Shown here: one piece after another, positions 1 through 6,068 of the stretch
Layout of the letters: each line of letters starts with the position of its first letter
Position numbering within the stretch: the stretch's first letter is position 1
UHGV virus genome: UHGV-0304743
Origin: a virus
Length of the DNA stretch: 31,594 nucleotides
Reading direction: 5' to 3' (one strand)
Program-made: the position numbers and the translations under genes
The notes under the pieces: generated by a model
The model's database searches: none
Told to the model about the DNA's origin: nothing
The model's input: the letters and a program-made list of their open reading frames with translations, nothing else

Positions 1-21
1 TTTTTAGATAGGCTAAATTAC

Positions 22-83
22 ACATCAACGGGGAGGGAATGACCTTCCCCACTAAATAAAGTCCTAAACTGGAGATTCTGAAA
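22..83 (+). promoter_or_regulatory. Conserved early-gene leader cassette: hairpin (GGGGAGGG...CCTTCCCC) followed by ACTAAATAAAGTCCTAAACTGGAGATTC and the start codon
   Basis: Near-identical ~60-nt sequence recurs before five early ORFs (22, 1573, 2135, 2733, 3063); contains a GGAG RBS ~10 nt before the ATG. Confidence 0.6.
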
Positions 84-287
84 ATGGCTATTATTAACGG
101 TTTAACTATTGAAACAACTCACATCAAAGATATTAAAGTCGGTGATACAGTTCTTTTTCACGGAGTAGAAAAAACCGTCACGGCGAAAGATATTACAGAG
201 GACTCCTTCATGGGCCGGTCGCTCTTCGGTGATTCCTATTGCTTAGGTTACCGTGCAGTTTTAAAAGTTGTAAAAAATAACAAATAA
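84..287 (+). CDS. hypothetical small early protein
   Basis: ORF track; preceded by conserved leader cassette with GGAG RBS. Confidence 0.6.
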   Translation: MAIINGLTIETTHIKDIKVGDTVLFHGVEKTVTAKDITEDSFMGRSLFGDSYCLGYRAVLKVVKNNK

Positions 288-288
288 A

Positions 289-374
289 GTACTTTACAAG
301 GGGCTTAAAAGTTGATATCTTAAGCCCCAGATAAAGAGCTTTACCACTCAATCCTTAAACTAGGAGATTCAAAA
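289..374 (+). promoter_or_regulatory. Leader cassette variant: hairpin GGGGCTTA...TAAGCCCC followed by AGATAAAGAGCTTTACCACTCAATCCTTAAACTAGGAGATTCAAAA
   Basis: Almost identical copy at 624-710; hairpin has 9-bp stem; AGGAG RBS before ATG. Confidence 0.6.
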
Positions 375-623
375 ATGATGAACTATTTCAATATCCCTGA
401 TACCTGCCGACTGTTGACACAAGAAGAAAATTTGGGTAAACCTTTTCTTTACCACATGCCAGATAGCACACCAAAAACTTATAGTTACAATGTTAACCGT
501 TTTACCGCATACGCTGCAAAGAACGGTTATAAGTTGGTTACTCAAAAAGTAATGCTGGTTACAAGCGCTGACGAGATTCCTACGGTTGCAGTTAAACTAA
601 TTTTCTCAAAGAAAGTTAAATAA
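375..623 (+). CDS. hypothetical small early protein
   Basis: ORF track; preceded by cassette and RBS. Confidence 0.6.
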   Translation: MMNYFNIPDTCRLLTQEENLGKPFLYHMPDSTPKTYSYNVNRFTAYAAKNGYKLVTQKVMLVTSADEIPTVAVKLIFSKKVK

Positions 624-710
624 AGTACTTTACAGGGGGCTTATAGTTCGATAAAGTAAGCCCCAGATAAAGAGCTTTACCACTCAATCCTTAAACTAGG
701 AGATTCAAAA
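624..710 (+). promoter_or_regulatory. Leader cassette (second copy of the 289-374 variant)
   Basis: Direct repeat of 289-374 with a few substitutions. Confidence 0.6.
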
Positions 711-1253
711 ATGAAATGTTTTCACGGTACTACTCAAGAAAATTTCCTCAACCTTATTAATAACGGTGATAAACCATCAGGCGCATGGAATTGTTCTGAT
801 ATGGATGGGAATTTTTACGTTTACCCAGAGAATAAAATCTATGGCGACGATGAGGAAGAAATAATCTTTGAAGGTATCCAGCAAGCTCTGGGCAATGCCA
901 CTATCACCGCAGCTTTTCAGATGAAAACTCAAAACATTGTTATCTTGGAACTTGAGATTCCAGAAGATGAGCTAAACGATGATTATTCTTGTGATAATAT
1001 GTCGAGCGTGGCAAGTTTTACAGAATATTTCGATTTAAATTGGATTAAAAAGGTTTACATCACTGAATTTAATGCTATGTATTCGCCTTTTTGTCTTCCT
1101 TCACTGGATAACCCAAATATGAATTATCTTGATGAGACATTAGAACTACTTGCTAAAAGTGTTCAACAATCGGACAGTATTCAGGTTTTTTGTGACATCA
1201 TGGACACACTAACGGAAAACATCGCAGAAGAGGATTTAAAGAGTTTTTTCTAA
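711..1253 (+). CDS. hypothetical protein (acidic, 180 aa)
   Basis: ORF track; AGGAG RBS in upstream cassette. Confidence 0.6.
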   Translation: MKCFHGTTQENFLNLINNGDKPSGAWNCSDMDGNFYVYPENKIYGDDEEEIIFEGIQQALGNATITAAFQMKTQNIVILELEIPEDELNDDYSCDNMSSVASFTEYFDLNWIKKVYITEFNAMYSPFCLPSLDNPNMNYLDETLELLAKSVQQSDSIQVFCDIMDTLTENIAEEDLKSFF

Positions 1254-1285
1254 AAACCTATGCAATCACCTTATAAACACTATTC

Positions 1286-1305
1286 AGCCCCTGTAAGGGG
1301 CTTTT
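1286..1305 (+). terminator. Intrinsic terminator-like hairpin AGCCCC-tgtaa-GGGGCT followed by TTTT
   Basis: 6-bp GC-rich stem plus T-run directly after the stop of the 711-1253 ORF. Confidence 0.5.
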
Positions 1306-1319
1306 AAGAGGCTTAAATC

Positions 1320-1553
1320 ATGCTTACAACCGTTTACCTTATCCTTTCTATTTGTAATGGTCATTCATGTGATTTTAAAGAGCTTGAGGAGTTTACAGGG
1401 AGTAAAGAAAATACTATTCAAGTTTGCCAGATAGCGAGACAAGACTATCCCGCAAGTGATGATATTCAGTGTTACTTTAAGACAGAAGATGAAGACGGTA
1501 TCTATTTTGACAGTGTAGATGGTCAGTATGAAATTATCATTGAAAAAGACTAG
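1320..1553 (+). CDS. hypothetical small protein
   Basis: ORF track; AAGAGG RBS upstream of ATG. Confidence 0.55.
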   Translation: MLTTVYLILSICNGHSCDFKELEEFTGSKENTIQVCQIARQDYPASDDIQCYFKTEDEDGIYFDSVDGQYEIIIEKD

Positions 1554-1572
1554 ACAAGCCTGATAAAAATCT

Positions 1573-1642
1573 GTAAATTGTCAATCAACGGGGAGGGGAT
1601 GACCTTCCCCACTAAATAAAATCCTAAACTGGAGATTCAAAA
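1573..1642 (+). promoter_or_regulatory. Leader cassette (TCAATCAACGGGGAGGGGATGACCTTCCCCACTAAATAAAATCCTAAACTGGAGATTC)
   Basis: Repeat family member, see 22-83. Confidence 0.6.
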
Positions 1643-1984
1643 ATGGCTTATGTAACCGTAATTACCGATAAAGCTGGCGCATCTTGGTCAACTCAAGTAA
1701 GCGATAAGATGTCACCTATGCAGTGCCTAAAATACTTTGAGCAATGGAACAAAGGCGAGGATGTCAGCCCCTTTCAAGTAATGCAGATTATCCATACAGA
1801 TAACGAAGGGAAGAAAACTGTTTTGAATAGTGAGTACTACGCAACCAGATTTGAAACGAGATGTAAAGCAATGAAGCTCTTGCGTGAGTCTGGTTATTCT
1901 CATATTGCGGCAATAATCTGGGATGACTTGCTAAAAAGTCAGCGTATCAGCTATGTAAAACCTGAAAAAATATTCATCAGTTAA
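1643..1984 (+). CDS. hypothetical protein
   Basis: ORF track; cassette and RBS upstream. Confidence 0.6.
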   Translation: MAYVTVITDKAGASWSTQVSDKMSPMQCLKYFEQWNKGEDVSPFQVMQIIHTDNEGKKTVLNSEYYATRFETRCKAMKLLRESGYSHIAAIIWDDLLKSQRISYVKPEKIFIS

Positions 1985-2016
1985 TCAATAACTTACAAAA
2001 AACTTTTAAAAAAGTG

Positions 2017-2045
2017 TTGACAATACCCCTTGACATTGGTAACTT
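2017..2045 (+). promoter_or_regulatory. sigma70-like promoter candidate (TTGACA-17-TAACTT); a second TTGACA lies 13 nt downstream
   Basis: Two TTGACA hexamers at 2017 and 2030; -10-like hexamer at appropriate spacing from the first. Confidence 0.35.
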
Positions 2046-2134
2046 TGTTCGAGGGGGTTTATCTAAAAGGGATTCACTTAAAAGATTCTTTATAGATAAG
2101 CTCAAAAAATTACTTGCAATCAACTATCAAAACA

Positions 2135-2205
2135 AGTAAATTACTAATCAACGGGAAGGCAATAACCTCCCCACTAAATAAAGTCCTTAAACTAGGAGAT
2201 TCAAA
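2135..2205 (+). promoter_or_regulatory. Leader cassette (degenerate copy: AATCAACGGGAAGGCAATAACCTCCCCACTAAATAAAGTCCTTAAACTAGGAGATTC)
   Basis: Repeat family member. Confidence 0.55.
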
Positions 2206-2736
2206 ATGAACAAGTTCAAAGCTATCAACTTCATTCGTTCAAATGCTGTAATGTCAAAGCCTGTTAAAGATACCTATGAATTTCGTTGCAATGGTGTACA
2301 CTTTGCAACCATCACTAAATCAGAAAACGGGGCTTATTACGTCCATCGTCGTAATGTTTCTACTGTTGTAGTTTCTCATTTTATGCAAGCTGTCGCGGAA
2401 CTTCTCCCGATGTTTTTAGGTCTTTACTTAGATGAGTGTAAAAACGTTCACAACCACGTTAAAAACCTTTTAAACGGTTATAAAATGGCTTATGAACGTT
2501 CTATCAAGTCACTAAACAAGTTCTATAAAGCCCCTGTAAATACCGTTTCAATGGCCTACGGCGTAAGTGGCTGGACTGTTAACCTTTCTCTAGTGGAAGA
2601 AATCGAGCTTTATGATTTACGCCCTAGTGGTGACTCTAAGACACTGGGAGAAGGTTTAACGTTCAATATCAAGAACTTAGAGAAAACTTTAAAAGATATT
2701 GAAAAAGATATTGACGAGACAACCAAAAGTCTGTAA
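2206..2736 (+). CDS. hypothetical protein
   Basis: ORF track; cassette and RBS upstream. Confidence 0.6.
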   Translation: MNKFKAINFIRSNAVMSKPVKDTYEFRCNGVHFATITKSENGAYYVHRRNVSTVVVSHFMQAVAELLPMFLGLYLDECKNVHNHVKNLLNGYKMAYERSIKSLNKFYKAPVNTVSMAYGVSGWTVNLSLVEEIELYDLRPSGDSKTLGEGLTFNIKNLEKTLKDIEKDIDETTKSL

Positions 2737-2802
2737 ATTGTCAATCAACGGGGAGGGAATGACCTTCCCCACTAAATAAAGTCCTAAACTGGAGTTATCA
2801 AG
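2733..2802 (+). promoter_or_regulatory. Leader cassette
   Basis: Repeat family member; identical hairpin core to 22-83. Confidence 0.6.
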
Positions 2803-3066
2803 ATGGAAAACGTAGAATTAACCACACTTTTACAAATTGCTACCGACAAAGAAGACGTAGCATTATTTCACCGTATCGAAAGCGATTTATTCAATGGTGA
2901 AATCATTAAAGAATCTTACGAAGTTGTCGGATTCAAAGACGGTAAAGCGTTCGGATTCTTTGACCTCGACAAAGGCAAAGCGGTTACAAAATATGATGTT
3001 TTATCTTGTGAGATTCTGACAAAATACAATGAAAAAAGGCTTGCAACATACGCCAATATGCAGTAA
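2803..3066 (+). CDS. hypothetical small protein
   Basis: ORF track. Confidence 0.55.
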   Translation: MENVELTTLLQIATDKEDVALFHRIESDLFNGEIIKESYEVVGFKDGKAFGFFDLDKGKAVTKYDVLSCEILTKYNEKRLATYANMQ

Positions 3067-3132
3067 ATTACTAATCAACGGGGAGGGATAACCTCCCTAC
3101 TAAGTAAAGTCCTTAAACTAGGAGATTCAAAA
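3063..3132 (+). promoter_or_regulatory. Leader cassette
   Basis: Repeat family member. Confidence 0.55.
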
Positions 3133-3381
3133 ATGGCAACTATCCGCGCAACTGTCAATGCTTATGGCTGTTATACTCTGGATGTTAAATTCGATATTGG
3201 TGGGACTGACGAGTGTTTTTCATTAGTGAAGACAGTTATCAAGCAAGTTATCCCAGATTATAACCCTACTGATGACTTCTGGAAAGACGCCGTAAAAGAG
3301 GCATTAAACGACGAGCACCACTATCATTACTGGGGTGACTTGATTATCTCACTGTACTACAATAAACAAGGTTACAACTAA
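3133..3381 (+). CDS. hypothetical small protein
   Basis: ORF track; cassette and RBS upstream. Confidence 0.6.
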   Translation: MATIRATVNAYGCYTLDVKFDIGGTDECFSLVKTVIKQVIPDYNPTDDFWKDAVKEALNDEHHYHYWGDLIISLYYNKQGYN

Positions 3382-3419
3382 TCGACGCAGCGGGGCTAAA
3401 TAGCCCCAGATACCTGAAC

Positions 3420-3444
3420 AGCCCCTTTAAATAGGGGCTTTTTT
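3420..3444 (+). terminator. Intrinsic terminator AGCCCCT-ttaaat-AGGGGCT followed by TTTTTT; a second GGGGCT/AGCCCC hairpin lies at 3392-3407
   Basis: 7-bp GC-rich stem plus T-run at the end of the rightward early cluster. Confidence 0.7.
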
Positions 3445-3840
3445 ACGTCTATCCAATCCTTATACAATCCCTTTCCCTTTCCTTTCCAGAATCTTATCAG
3501 ACCTTAAAAGCAATAACTCTATAGTCTACTCTATAACCTCTTATCAAATCAACTTAAATATAAGCCAATAACCCCAGAAAGGGGATGGCCCACTTAAACG
3601 CTCTATAAAGCGCTATAACAGCCTTATCAACCTAACTTAAGGGATTGCATTAACTCACCCTTAAAAGCTCTTTACAGGGCTTTATAGAGGCTTAAAAGAA
3701 TCTTATAAGGGTATGAGCTTTATTATCTCGTTAGTATCTTGTGAATAGTTAAACAACCCCTTGATAGTCACTAAAAAGTATGTTATAGGGGCTTTAAAGT
3801 TACTTTGAAGTAGCTTAAAAGTTACGTAAATGCTAGCCCC

Positions 3841-4421
3841 CTTAACATTTTCTTAACAATTTCTTAACAATCCCTACATAGTTATGCTTTTAAGACACTT
3901 GTTAGCAACTTGTTAGCCCCTTGTTAAATCTCTGTTAATACCACGTAAAAGCCTTGTAAGAGTCTTTGACATAGCCTTAAAAGCTCCTGTGAAGCCCTAT
4001 AAAGAGTTATCTGTACAGTTGGGGTGTAACTACTAGGAAGAGACTTAAAAGAGCTTATAAAGAGCTATAGAGAGCTTTTAAGAGGTATGTTTAAGGAATC
4101 ACTAAGAAAGGAAAGGGAACGATAAGAAAAGAGTAGTGACCATGTTAATAGCTTGTTAAAAAGATTAAACACTTGTTAGAAACTTGTTAATTATCTTAAC
4201 AAAATAACTCTTTAAAATTAACTTGTTAGCTCTTGTTAGTCATCTGTTAAGAGACTGTAAAGCCTATGTATCAACTGTTAAGAAACTGTTAAGCCCTTGT
4301 TAGTTCTGTTAAGAATCTGTTAAGACCTCTGAAGAGATGTTAAGAAGATGTAAGAGTTGTTAAGAGATTGTTAAGGATATTTTAAAATTTTGCAAAGTAC
4401 TTGTAAGGGAGTTGTTAAGGG
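3841..4421. repeat. Iteron array: ~20 copies of (C/T)TGTTA(A/G) in direct orientation plus ~4 inverted copies (CTTAACA), spaced 8-12 nt
   Basis: Counted by eye, e.g. 3896-3945, 4141-4200, 4221-4250, 4271-4380; no ORF of significant length in the region. Confidence 0.6.
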
Positions 4422-5002
4422 CTACCAAGCAGATATACATCTTCTACAGATATTTTTCAGTTCCTTCAAAGACCCTAAAAAATGACTTGATAGTCCTATT
4501 TTATAAAAATTTTAAAAATCTGAATAATTACCTATACAGTCTTTCTAAAATACAGGTAGAAACAGGCTTATAAGATACCTTGTTAGTACCGTGTTAGACC
4601 TTGTGAGATAAGGTCTGTAAAGATATTCCTGTTAAGTTTGTTAAAACAGTCTATATAGAGGCTTAGTAGTACCTAGTGAACACCTATAGAGAGTCACATA
4701 GCTGACATAGAGATTAAGAGGTGTATAGGAGCTTCTAAGAGGGTGTAGAGGGATGGTTAAGGTGATTGTATAGGCTGTTTAGAAGGCTTGTTAGAGGGCT
4801 AGTTAGAAGGGTTATACAGAGGGCTATTAAGACCACTAGATAGATACTAAGATACTATATAGTACTATATAACTATATATAGAGAGTAAGATTAAGAAGG
4901 TTGTTAAGAAGGATAGATGTTTTGTTCACATATGATGGTGACCCAGAGGTTGGGACAACCGATAAAATTTTATAAAAAATATAAATTTCGTAAATTTTAC
5001 TC

Positions 5003-5029
5003 AATAAAAAGCCCCCAATTAAGGAGGCT
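5003..5029 (-). terminator. Intrinsic terminator for the leftward operon (minus-strand hairpin AGCCTCC-ttaatt-GGGGGCT then TTTTTATT)
   Basis: 7-bp stem with one G.U pair, T-run on minus strand, immediately downstream of the minus-strand gene ending at 5042. Confidence 0.55.
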
Positions 5030-5041
5030 CTTAAGATATTT

Positions 5042-5635
5042 TTAAATCAGTGTTTCCAGAACTGTCTTCAGTGATGACTTGGTTGTCTGATAAAAATGAG
5101 TAAATCCATTGTTGTTATCGAATATCTGCATCATGATATCATCTCCCTTGATTGGGTACACTCGGATATCATAGTGAAACCCATTAAAGACAGCAGAACC
5201 ATTGCAGAATACACTAAAATCATCCACTGAGATATACTCTTCATGTCCTGTGATTTTTATACAGATGCCTTTGCTCGGTCTCTTAGGGTTGATATCTTCC
5301 ATCACAGACATATTCTGCCCACCAAGAGATACCATAGTGACCACTTTACGGTTCTTCTGTCTAAAGTACATTTTAACTTTCTGCAAAGTGTCTTCATAGA
5401 ACGGATAAGACCTTTCTACAAAGATTCCTTCAAGTGGCTCTTTACCATTTTCAACTTCTCTGTTATGCCGTACTGCAAAGATAATTTGTTCGAACCAGTC
5501 AAGATTTTCTTCGGAGAGTGCTTCCCGAATATCACTCCAATCAAGAACTAGATAGTTACCTTCAACTTCTTTTAAGTTATCTTTTTCCATATCTATCACA
5601 CCATTATCGTAAAACTTGGTAAGCTGGAACTGCAA
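5042..5635 (-). CDS. hypothetical protein
   Basis: ORF track; last gene of tightly packed leftward operon; start may be the internal Met. Confidence 0.55.
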   Translation of the reverse strand: MQFQLTKFYDNGVIDMEKDNLKEVEGNYLVLDWSDIREALSEENLDWFEQIIFAVRHNREVENGKEPLEGIFVERSYPFYEDTLQKVKMYFRQKNRKVVTMVSLGGQNMSVMEDINPKRPSKGICIKITGHEEYISVDDFSVFCNGSAVFNGFHYDIRVYPIKGDDIMMQIFDNNNGFTHFYQTTKSSLKTVLETLI

Positions 5636-6068
5636 ACTTGTTGCCGTTGTTCTTAATGAGGTCTTCTTCTGTTACTAAGAATGTAATCCCACACAAGTGT
5701 GTGTATTGGCTATCATACTCAAATATTTTAAGTAAGTATTTACCATCGTGATAAACAGATTCTACTACACCTTTTGCAACAATCTTTCCAGTCTTGAAAT
5801 CTTTAAGAGGGTATACATTACCAACTTTAGGGACTGTTTTCATCTCAGGTTCTTTTAGTTTCTCACTAACTTCTACATCACCTAGTAAGTGAGAACTCTC
5901 AAACGCTACATATTGCATATAAGCTTCTGAGCATTCCCAGATAAAACAATGTACAAGAATCTTAGCAGCATGTCTTGAGCAATTCAACTTATCACAAATT
6001 TCTTTGTACATTTCATCTTTAGTTGAGTTGTCAAGCATTGCTTTTCGAACTGTTTCTTTAATTTTCAT
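5604..6068 (-). CDS. hypothetical protein
   Basis: ORF track; overlaps neighbours by a few codons. Confidence 0.55.
   Translation of the reverse strand: MKIKETVRKAMLDNSTKDEMYKEICDKLNCSRHAAKILVHCFIWECSEAYMQYVAFESSHLLGDVEVSEKLKEPEMKTVPKVGNVYPLKDFKTGKIVAKGVVESVYHDGKYLLKIFEYDSQYTHLCGITFLVTEEDLIKNNGNKFAVPAYQVLR

Follow-up and report, generated by a model that had tools for sequence, protein, structure and literature searches.

The window analysed here is the whole 31,594-nt stretch of the virus genome UHGV-0304743, which belongs to a Felix O1-like myovirus (Ounavirinae, genus Felixounavirus): bases 1-6000 match approximately 260 phage records, and the best matches, with about 92% identity over the full length, are every one Felix O1-like. 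At its start lies a cluster of eight small open reading frames (ORFs) on the plus strand, within positions 1-3381 (84-287, 375-623, 711-1253, 1320-1553, 1643-1984, 2206-2736, 2803-3066 and 3133-3381), the counterpart of which in Felix O1 is genes 15-23. The row of ORFs is closed by a canonical terminator at 3420-3445, beyond which the DNA is non-coding and rich in repeats for about 1.6 kb. Each of the eight ORFs has a match among the PHROG families of unknown function (E = 1e-32 to 1e-92), and a Pfam search of the eight matched none of them to any family; they are real but anonymous accessory proteins. The subject of this analysis is a repeated cassette of 85-95 nt, which precedes seven of the eight ORFs (starts 84, 375, 711, 1643, 2206, 2803 and 3133).

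A preliminary description of this DNA had noted a repeated hairpin-plus-leader element in two variants before these seven ORFs. Repeat finding and alignment demonstrated that the element is real, with seven copies within a few bases of where they had been placed, and that it forms two classes: class 1 (variant 1) with five copies and class 2 (variant 2) with two. From the -10 box to the ATG, the class 1 copies occupy 14-86, 1574-1645, 2137-2208, 2734-2805 and 3064-3135, and they split into the sub-types 1a (copies 14, 1574 and 2734) and 1b (copies 2137 and 3064). The class 2 copies, 282-377 and 618-713, are 92% identical across 97 nt. The 23-mer CTAAATAAAGTCCTAAACTGGAG has three matches at up to three mismatches against 0.00 expected, which excludes chance. 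Conservation far beyond the needs of a ribosome binding site (RBS), also proposed earlier, is borne out, and the element is a conserved regulatory cassette. Profile hidden Markov models built from the copies recovered those of the window at E = 1e-22 to 1e-39 and found no sites beyond the seven cassettes over the whole 31.6 kb. In the complete genome of Felix O1 (86 kb), the models found seven sites, all in the homologous gene 15-23 cluster. The core ATAAAGAGCT had been said to recur in the non-coding region 3600-4080. One exact and four one-mismatch copies are indeed there (12 matches window-wide against 4.25 expected), but those at 4038-4088 are not cassettes; they are part of a separate tandem array with a 10-11 bp period, unrelated to the cassettes.

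A sigma-70 promoter had at first been excluded, which turned out to be wrong. The hexamer TAAATT, at the 5' edge of the conserved block and immediately before the string quoted in the preliminary description, is a -10 box, and a -35 box is found 17 bp further upstream, where it is not visible as a part of the repeat because it lies outside it. The features of the cluster, all on the plus strand, are the following (SD, Shine-Dalgarno sequence; "scan" refers to a generic promoter scan).

1..86 (+): class 1 cassette of ORF 84-287, truncated by the window start; -10 box TAAATT 14-19, predicted start A27, hairpin 30-50, SD GGAG 71-74, ATG 84; the -35 box falls about 9 nt before base 1.
292..377 (+): class 2 cassette of ORF 375-623; -35 box TTTACA 293-298, -10 box TATCTT 316-321 with TG before it, predicted start A329, stem-loop 292-336 with inner stem 300-308/320-328, SD 363-366, ATG 375; stop codon TAA of the upstream ORF at 285-287; listed by the scan as 293..321 (9/12 matches, TG present).
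628..713 (+): class 2 cassette of ORF 711-1253; -35 box TTTACA 629-634, -10 box TAAAGT 652-657, predicted start A665, stem-loop 628-672 with inner stem 636-644/656-664, SD 699-702, ATG 711; stop codon TAA of the upstream ORF at 621-623; listed by the scan as 629..657.
1286..1322 (+): terminator-like hairpin 1286-1302 with a UUUU run, then SD AAGAGG and ATG 1320.
1551..1645 (+): class 1 cassette of ORF 1643-1984; -35 box TAGACA 1551-1556, the TAG of which is the stop codon of ORF 1320-1553, -10 box TAAATT 1574-1579, predicted start A1587, hairpin 1590-1610, SD 1631-1634, ATG 1643; listed by the scan as 1551..1579.
2114..2208 (+): class 1 cassette of ORF 2206-2736; -35 box TTGCAA 2114-2119, -10 box TAAATT 2137-2142, predicted start A2150, hairpin 2153-2172 (the weakest copy, with one A/C mismatch), SD 2195-2198, ATG 2206.
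2711..2805 (+): class 1 cassette of ORF 2803-3066; -35 box TTGACG 2711-2716 within ORF 2206-2736, -10 box TAAATT 2734-2739, the TAA of which is the stop codon of the same ORF, predicted start A2747, hairpin 2750-2770, SD 2791-2794, ATG 2803; listed by the scan as 2711..2739.
3041..3135 (+): class 1 cassette of ORF 3133-3381; -35 box TTGCAA 3041-3046 within ORF 2803-3066, -10 box TAAATT 3064-3069, the TAA of which is the stop codon of the same ORF, predicted start A3077, hairpin 3080-3098, SD 3121-3124, ATG 3133.
3392..3445 (+): end of the cluster; promoter-less cassette-type hairpin GGGGCTAAATAGCCCC 3392-3407, AGATA, terminator stem 3420-3439, T-run 3440-3445.

The ASO1A homologue of the truncated first cassette (L001, ATG 1098) reads TTGACA-17-TAAATT. 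As noted before, ORF 1320 follows a terminator-like hairpin instead, and it alone in the cluster has neither a cassette nor its own recognisable promoter; the records of Barry and wV8 annotate the counterpart of this hairpin as a terminator.

Cassettes were collected from twelve stretches of eleven genomes in three genera (Felixounavirus, Mooglevirus and Suspvirus); a Kolesnikvirus locus was handled apart. The class 1 contexts of the three genera were compared with the -10 box as the fixed point. With a spacer of 17 bp, the upstream hexamer matched TTGACA in at least four of six positions in 48 of 48 distinct contexts (mean 4.85). At spacings of 16 and 18 bp no context reached four matches, and at other offsets the mean was approximately 0.8-3.3. 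The 48 contexts represent 15 groups of dissimilar flanks, and the background rate for four or more matches is 5.2%. These -35 hexamers are located outside the repeat and often inside the preceding ORF, while the -10 box always conforms to TAnnnT (TAAATT, TAAAGT, TAGTAT, TACTAT, TATAGT, TAATAT). In class 2, TTTACA, which is embedded in an invariant CTTTACA, precedes a TAnnnT, with a spacer of 17 bp in 23 of the 26 distinct cores and of 18 bp in the remaining three. This TAnnnT (background 2.3%) sits in the loop and the 3' arm of the hairpin, and the remaining loop sequence varies. A+T makes up 76% of the 25 nt that precede the -35 box, compared with a background of 61-63%, and a CA dinucleotide 7-8 nt after the -10 box, present in both classes, would be the expected start position. 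The promoter scan independently lists four of the window copies, as marked above. Hairpin-less variants in HP1 (L010, ATG 4694) and mistaenkt (L008, ATG 5763 and 6300) retain promoter and leader.

The preliminary description had named phage-specific promoters among its candidates. The promoter part of this proposal stands; the phage-specific part does not, and we regard it as very unlikely that the cassettes are promoters for phage-specific transcription, be it of the N4 virion-RNA polymerase hairpin type or T7-like. Features that would fit such promoters are GGGGAG after a conserved block of about 23 nt, the constant hairpin position and the superficial likeness of AAATTGTCAATCAACGGGGAGGG to TAATACGACTCACTATAGGGAGA. 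However, N4-type hairpin promoters have a stem of 5-7 bp with a 3-nt loop and need a phage-encoded virion RNA polymerase, whereas the loops here comprise 4-6 nt in class 1 and 8-14 nt in class 2. Moreover, the hairpin sequence is free to vary as long as pairing persists, and the conserved upstream block is fully explained by the sigma-70 hexamers. The genome paper of Felix O1 reports that this phage encodes no RNA polymerase and no known factor specifying or modifying RNA polymerase (PMC3185647). Therefore, early promoters for the host sigma-70 enzyme are the simplest reading.

Other assignments of the conserved blocks were set aside. An alternative class 2 promoter with the upstream TAAAGT as -10 box has no -35 box at 16-18 bp, and this TAAAGT is not conserved, whereas TTTACA-17-TAnnnT is invariant. 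A T4 late promoter was considered in ACTAAATAAAG, a stretch that is not conserved in the Mooglevirus and Suspvirus copies (AACAATCC, ACTTCC). A MotA box of T4 middle promoters is expected approximately 12 nt from the -10 box; the candidate in class 2 (GTGCTTTACA) lies 19 nt from it, and many copies read GTACTTTACA. The MotA reading was rejected among other reasons because no modifiers of RNA polymerase are reported for Felix O1 (PMC3185647).

The hairpin is placed differently in the two classes. In class 1 it begins 10 nt after the -10 box and has a stem of 6-8 bp with a loop of 4-6 nt. In class 2 it covers the promoter spacer, the -10 box and the discriminator, has a loop of 8-14 nt, and the whole element is a 15-17 bp helix interrupted by a 2x2 or 3x3 internal loop. 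In Sf17 (L007, ATG 691) a hairpin is found within the promoter spacer. The class 1 stems differ among lineages and yet always pair, as they vary in a compensatory manner (GGGGAGGG/CCTTCCCC, GGGGAGG/CCTCCCC, GGGGC/GCCCC, GGGC/GCCC, GGGA/TCCC). For class 2, the differing loop lengths hid the inner stems from RNAalifold when plain MAFFT alignments were given, and an alignment anchored on the arms, with 17 distinct versions including copies from an Erwinia phage, was used instead. In this alignment 94.9% of the cells in the arms are paired, compared to 86.4% in shuffles, and in five pairs both partners have changed. Covariation was scored at 0.229 against 0.081; none of 500 shuffles reached this score, and with slid partners it was at most 0.022, approximately tenfold lower. 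Further, the sense strand forms the stabler hairpin through G·U pairs, which are A/C mismatches on the opposite strand, in 28 of the 40 hairpins of class 1 and 19 of the 25 of class 2, and GNRA loops (GAAA, GAGA) occur in some Mooglevirus and Suspvirus copies. By these measures the hairpin is a selected structure, most likely in the sense RNA. An Rfam search of positions 1-5200 returned only two sub-threshold chance matches (20-24 bits against cut-offs of 55-114), one at 1913-1995, which ends before the cassette at 2114, and one at 5002-5063, past the cluster.

Could the hairpins simply be Rho-independent terminators between monocistronic genes, with the remaining conservation due to leader and RBS? 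The ASO1A record annotates them as WebGeSTer terminators on the plus strand, and KhF1 and wV8 place some on the minus strand. The distance from stop codon to hairpin, 15-22 nt in both classes (about 50 nt in a minority of copies), would fit termination. In addition, the stem-loops of the promoter-early stem-loop elements (PeSLs) of phage RB49 lowered the expression of a downstream lacZ to the same extent as rrnB T1 did (PMC2839356). On the other hand, the hairpin tails are A-rich (ACUAAAUAAAG or AGAUAAAGAG) and a U-tract is absent from all cassette hairpins, in agreement with the earlier remark that this GC-rich hairpin without a T-run is not a standard terminator. A terminator scan detected the true terminator at 3420-3445 and none of the seven cassette hairpins. 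At the end of the cluster, the cassette-type hairpin, if efficient, would make the canonical terminator that follows it redundant; this arrangement of cassette-type hairpin and terminator is kept in the 11 Felixounavirus, Mooglevirus and Suspvirus loci listed, the window included. Since this explanation also leaves the conservation of the -35 and -10 boxes unaccounted for, we consider it unlikely.

Still less probable, in our view, is a single polycistronic early transcript in which the hairpins are RNase III or RNase E sites giving rise to stable monocistronic mRNAs, with the promoter matches being incidental. Its appeal lies in the interrupted class 2 helix with its internal loop, in the AU-rich single-stranded leader after each hairpin, and in a strong promoter-like site upstream of the first cassette in related phages. 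The RNase III sites of the T7 early region are likewise conserved intercistronic stem-loops among small early genes, and the message upstream of them retains a hairpin at its 3' end. However, the T7 helices are at least about 20 bp long, contain a characteristic internal loop and are not each accompanied by a promoter, and the class 1 stems of 6-8 bp are shorter than typical RNase III substrates require. Moreover, processing would not lead one to expect the TTGNNN-17-TAnnnT spacing in 48 of 48 and 26 of 26 contexts, partly within coding sequence, or the retention of the promoter in hairpin-less variants.

Each cassette ends with a near-invariant leader, CCTAAACTGGAG, followed by about 8 nt and the ATG. 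Among 121 copies, 116 have GGAG 7-9 nt upstream of the ATG, with the leader either as CCTAAACTGGAG or in the double-insertion form CCTTAAACTAGGAG. The forms CCT-AAACT-GGAG and CCTT-AAACT-AGGAG were counted 89 and 31 times, respectively, and a mixed form once (compare window 2186-2198 and 2783-2794). These linked insertions preserve the complementarity of an anti-SD (UCC/UCCU) to the SD (GGA/AGGA), and could reflect a small stem sequestering the SD or merely two alleles spread by recombination. In the Erwinia phage phiEa104 a recognisable version of the leader persists, and its leaders (CCTTATAAAGG and similar) are likewise self-complementary.

The annotated start of Felix O1 ORF19 (L004, 9983-10300) is an ATG inside the loop of a cassette hairpin (GGGGAGGGAATGACC). 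The cassette ATG at 10028, which follows a standard leader and opens a frame of 90 amino acids, is likely the true start of this ORF.

It is tempting to consider that the leader, with or without the hairpin, is in addition to the promoter an operator for a phage RNA-binding regulator or nuclease that shuts off early genes in the manner of T4 RegA or RegB. CCTAAACTGGAG and AGATAAAGAGCTTT are conserved far past the needs of an SD and into Erwinia phages, the SD is always GGAG in the enterobacterial genera, and the anti-SD CCU(U), 5-6 nt upstream, is kept complementary by two linked indels (T/- 89, TT/A 31, mixed 1). However, the mini-stem has merely 3-4 bp, the linked indels are equally explained by one allele spread by recombination, and no RegA- or RegB-like protein was identified, with none of the eight ORFs matching Pfam. 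Thus, such an operator is rather doubtful, though slightly less so than the terminators discussed above.

Taken with the comparison to PeSLs made below, we consider it probable that each copy works as an independent unit of early gene expression, transcribed by the sigma-70 RNA polymerase of the host, and that the copies form a PeSL-like promoter/stem-loop/RBS family of the Ounavirinae. A unit consists of an A/T-rich stretch that often contains the stop codon of the previous gene, -35 and -10 boxes 17 bp apart, a GC-rich stem-loop in the sense RNA, and the leader CCTAAACTGGAG, which supplies the RBS. Since the class 1 hairpin begins 10 nt after the -10 box, class 1 transcripts would start at the conserved CA approximately 3 nt before the hairpin and carry a 5'-terminal stem-loop. 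The ompA 5'-UTR (untranslated region) and the T7 phi10 leader GGGAGACCACAACGGTTTCCC are mRNA stabilisers of this kind, and the class 1 stem-loop, with a GC-rich hairpin about 3 nt after the predicted start, then an AU-rich leader and a strong SD, should shield the mRNA from 5'-end-dependent decay in the same way. In contrast to these examples, the class 1 start is a predicted one, and class 2 and some variants have no 5' hairpin, so that 5' stabilisation is not the sole role of the hairpin. In class 2, where the hairpin spans the promoter, it would be present only in read-through transcripts coming from upstream. In both classes, the hairpin would most likely act as an attenuator or as a barrier to 3' exonucleases for the upstream message, and in this way insulate each unit. 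Finally, because 60-95 nt of near-identical DNA flank unrelated small genes, whole units are deleted, inserted, duplicated and re-paired through homologous recombination among the copies, which makes this terminus-adjacent cluster a hyperplastic region.

Several points weigh against this interpretation. We infer promoter activity and start sites from consensus and conservation, and the -10 boxes TAAATT and TAAAGT as well as the -35 boxes TTGCAA and TTTACA match the consensus in only four of six positions. Over 5.2 kb, promoter-like matches are not in excess (19 against 16.0 ± 3.5 in shuffles). Since recombination spreads copies, many of the "distinct" copies are not independent. A single role of the hairpin is not proven, because its position relative to the start differs between the two classes, and the missing U-tract argues against efficient intrinsic termination. 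With respect to timing, reverse transcription-PCR showed that the Felix O1 transcripts of ORFs 16, 20, 21 and 22 peak 5 min after infection, as would suit early promoters, but those of the cluster ORFs 17, 19 and 23 peak at 25 min and not at 5 min (PMC3185647).

The distribution of the cassettes documents the shuffling of units. Conservation in related phages, proposed as a check in the preliminary description, was found in the three enterobacterial genera and in phiEa104, where the same architecture is present with diverged sequence and compensated stems (GGTG...CACC) and a neighbouring protein is 31% identical. A gene-order map shows that units of cassette plus ORF are gained, lost or duplicated whole between related phages, and that the class of cassette in front of one and the same ORF (1 or 2) can differ between phages, according to the upstream neighbour of the ORF. 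In Michonne (L006, approximately 1200-1380), the unit of an 85-amino-acid ORF is duplicated in tandem. Between the copies lies a 9-codon scar, in which a cassette leader and its ATG are fused directly to the next class 2 cassette; this scar is the footprint of unequal crossing-over between cassettes. The 87-amino-acid ORF 2803-3066 is missing from Felix O1 and UAB_Phi87, and the N-P junction cassettes of both phages are chimeras of the N-O and O-P cassettes of the window. One phage has the crossover at TAAATT and the other has it within ATCAACGGG, and we read the two junctions as two independent homologous recombination events between cassettes. In a scan of IMG/VR with CCAGATAAAGAGCTTTA, multi-copy matches were restricted to contigs of about 54-94 kb, mostly 80-94 kb, which is the size of Ounavirinae genomes; by a rough estimate, the few single matches elsewhere are at chance level. 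The 147-kb record GU169904.1, named Staphylococcus phage SA1, carries a 90%-identical Felix O1-type ORF of 176 amino acids together with a cassette, which suggests a mixed or chimeric assembly.

A further idea is that the cassettes do more than offer passive homology, and that their invariant parts, namely the leader CCTAAACTGGAG and an imperfect inverted repeat of 12 bp (CTTTACAnGGGG ... CCCCAGATAAAGAGCTTT), are recognised by a phage protein. This could be a recombinase-like protein acting in integron-like capture of ORF units and their excision as mini-circles, or a global regulator of early genes that binds DNA or RNA. We hold this to be improbable; if true, the cassettes would constitute a dedicated gene-cassette system at the Ounavirinae genome terminus.

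Regarding this terminus, window positions 3836-4426 are 75% identical over 594 bp to the 570-bp terminal repeat that ends the record of Citrobacter phage HP1, and the mistaenkt record ends at about window position 3837. These correspondences suggest that the physical genome end with a direct terminal repeat is probably located at 3836-4426, in which case the cassette cluster would lie about 450 bp from the terminus and be transcribed towards it. Tandem arrays with a helical period of 10-11 bp are found at 3841-3926, 4038-4088 and 4224-4375, most of them within the putative terminal repeat. Their units are CTTAACAATTT (2.8 copies), ACTTGTTAGCA (2.7 copies), AAGAGCTTATA (4 copies) and CTGTTAAGAGA (12.7 copies, with a 31-bp super-period), and they look like phased protein-binding sites for packaging, end recognition or an origin.

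Other observations concern the rest of the window. Positions 1985-2113, part of the gap of about 220 nt between ORFs 1643-1984 and 2206-2736, contain a promoter-like TTGACA-17-TAACTT at 2018-2046. The counterpart of this segment in Michonne and mistaenkt is filled by an extra ORF of 46 amino acids with its own promoter and leader, which was apparently lost in the window. Farther downstream, 25 transfer RNA (tRNA) genes with small ORFs between them are located on the plus strand at 14976-20557. A gene for a 471-amino-acid DUF2828/DUF7788 protein (13395-14810) lies 5' of this array and the large terminase gene (20989-22605) 3' of it.

Among known systems, the morons of lambdoid phages are promoter-gene-terminator units and resemble the cassette units in being autonomous expression units gained or lost whole between related phages. 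However, morons are single and heterogeneous and have canonical terminators, whereas here a tandem family of homologous cassettes flanks the genes. The closest precedent is provided by the PeSLs, described in the T4-like phages RB49/phi1, PST and nt-1 (Arbiol et al. 2010, PMC2839356; Comeau et al. 2014, PMC4122927). In a PeSL, A/T-rich DNA containing the stop codon of the gene upstream is combined with sigma-70 boxes, with a stem-loop of the type GGGG...CCCC that includes G-T pairs, and with an SD and ATG. The stem-loop may be placed between the two boxes, over the -10 box or downstream of it, and PeSLs occur in clusters of ORFans with indel breakpoints inside the motif (PMC2839356). The cassettes agree with this description in their sigma-70-like boxes at canonical spacing (class 1 48/48, class 2 26/26), in the A/T-rich 5' stretch with the upstream stop codon, and in the SD and start codon at the 3' end. 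They also share the stem-loop of G-run and C-run with G-T pairs and variable position (after the -10 box, over spacer and -10 box, or inside the spacer), as well as the small ORFans in a hyperplastic region with indel or replacement breakpoints inside the motif. The stop codon upstream of class 2 cassettes precedes the -35 box by 8-15 nt; as a variation on the PeSL plan, in class 1 it is inside the -10 or -35 box, and in 22 of 31 adjacent class 1 cases it is the TAA of the -10 box itself.

The differences to PeSLs are that the present cassettes occur in Ounavirinae and not in T4-like phages (Straboviridae), that their leader is far more uniform, that their upstream stop codon is so often part of the -10 box, and that the cluster adjoins the terminal repeat. 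Moreover, promoter activity, terminator or attenuator activity and mini-circles were demonstrated experimentally for PeSLs, whereas the present description of the Ounavirinae cassettes is drawn from sequence comparison. A blastn query with the cassette matched only Ounavirinae-type records and showed no similarity to T4-like genomes. Thus, the cassettes are a PeSL analogue of the same design in another lineage, without shown sequence relatedness.

Our literature search found no link between PeSLs and Felix O1-like phages and no transcriptome or start-site map of a Felix O1-type phage. The Felix O1 paper gives two of the repeats as "direct repeats" only and states that promoters for most of the genome were not found and that temporal control is unknown (PMC3185647). 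The text of the wV8 genome paper does not mention the repeats; the wV8 record names the cassette copies DR_1 to DR_9. GenBank labels are inconsistent, with the same elements given as direct repeats, plus-strand terminators or minus-strand terminators.

The identification of the cassettes is important for several reasons. They would provide a coherent set of predicted early promoters for the host RNA polymerase, together with predicted start sites, in a phage group that is in wide use for typing, biocontrol and therapy, and they would correct an inconsistent annotation, including the start of Felix O1 ORF19 inside a hairpin loop. Since they are compact and portable, combining promoter, 5' hairpin and strong RBS, the cassettes may serve as expression parts. 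Last, they would extend the PeSL principle, regulatory cassettes doubling as recombination linkers, to a second, unrelated myovirus lineage, and this extension would support cassette shuffling as a general route of accessory-gene turnover in phages.

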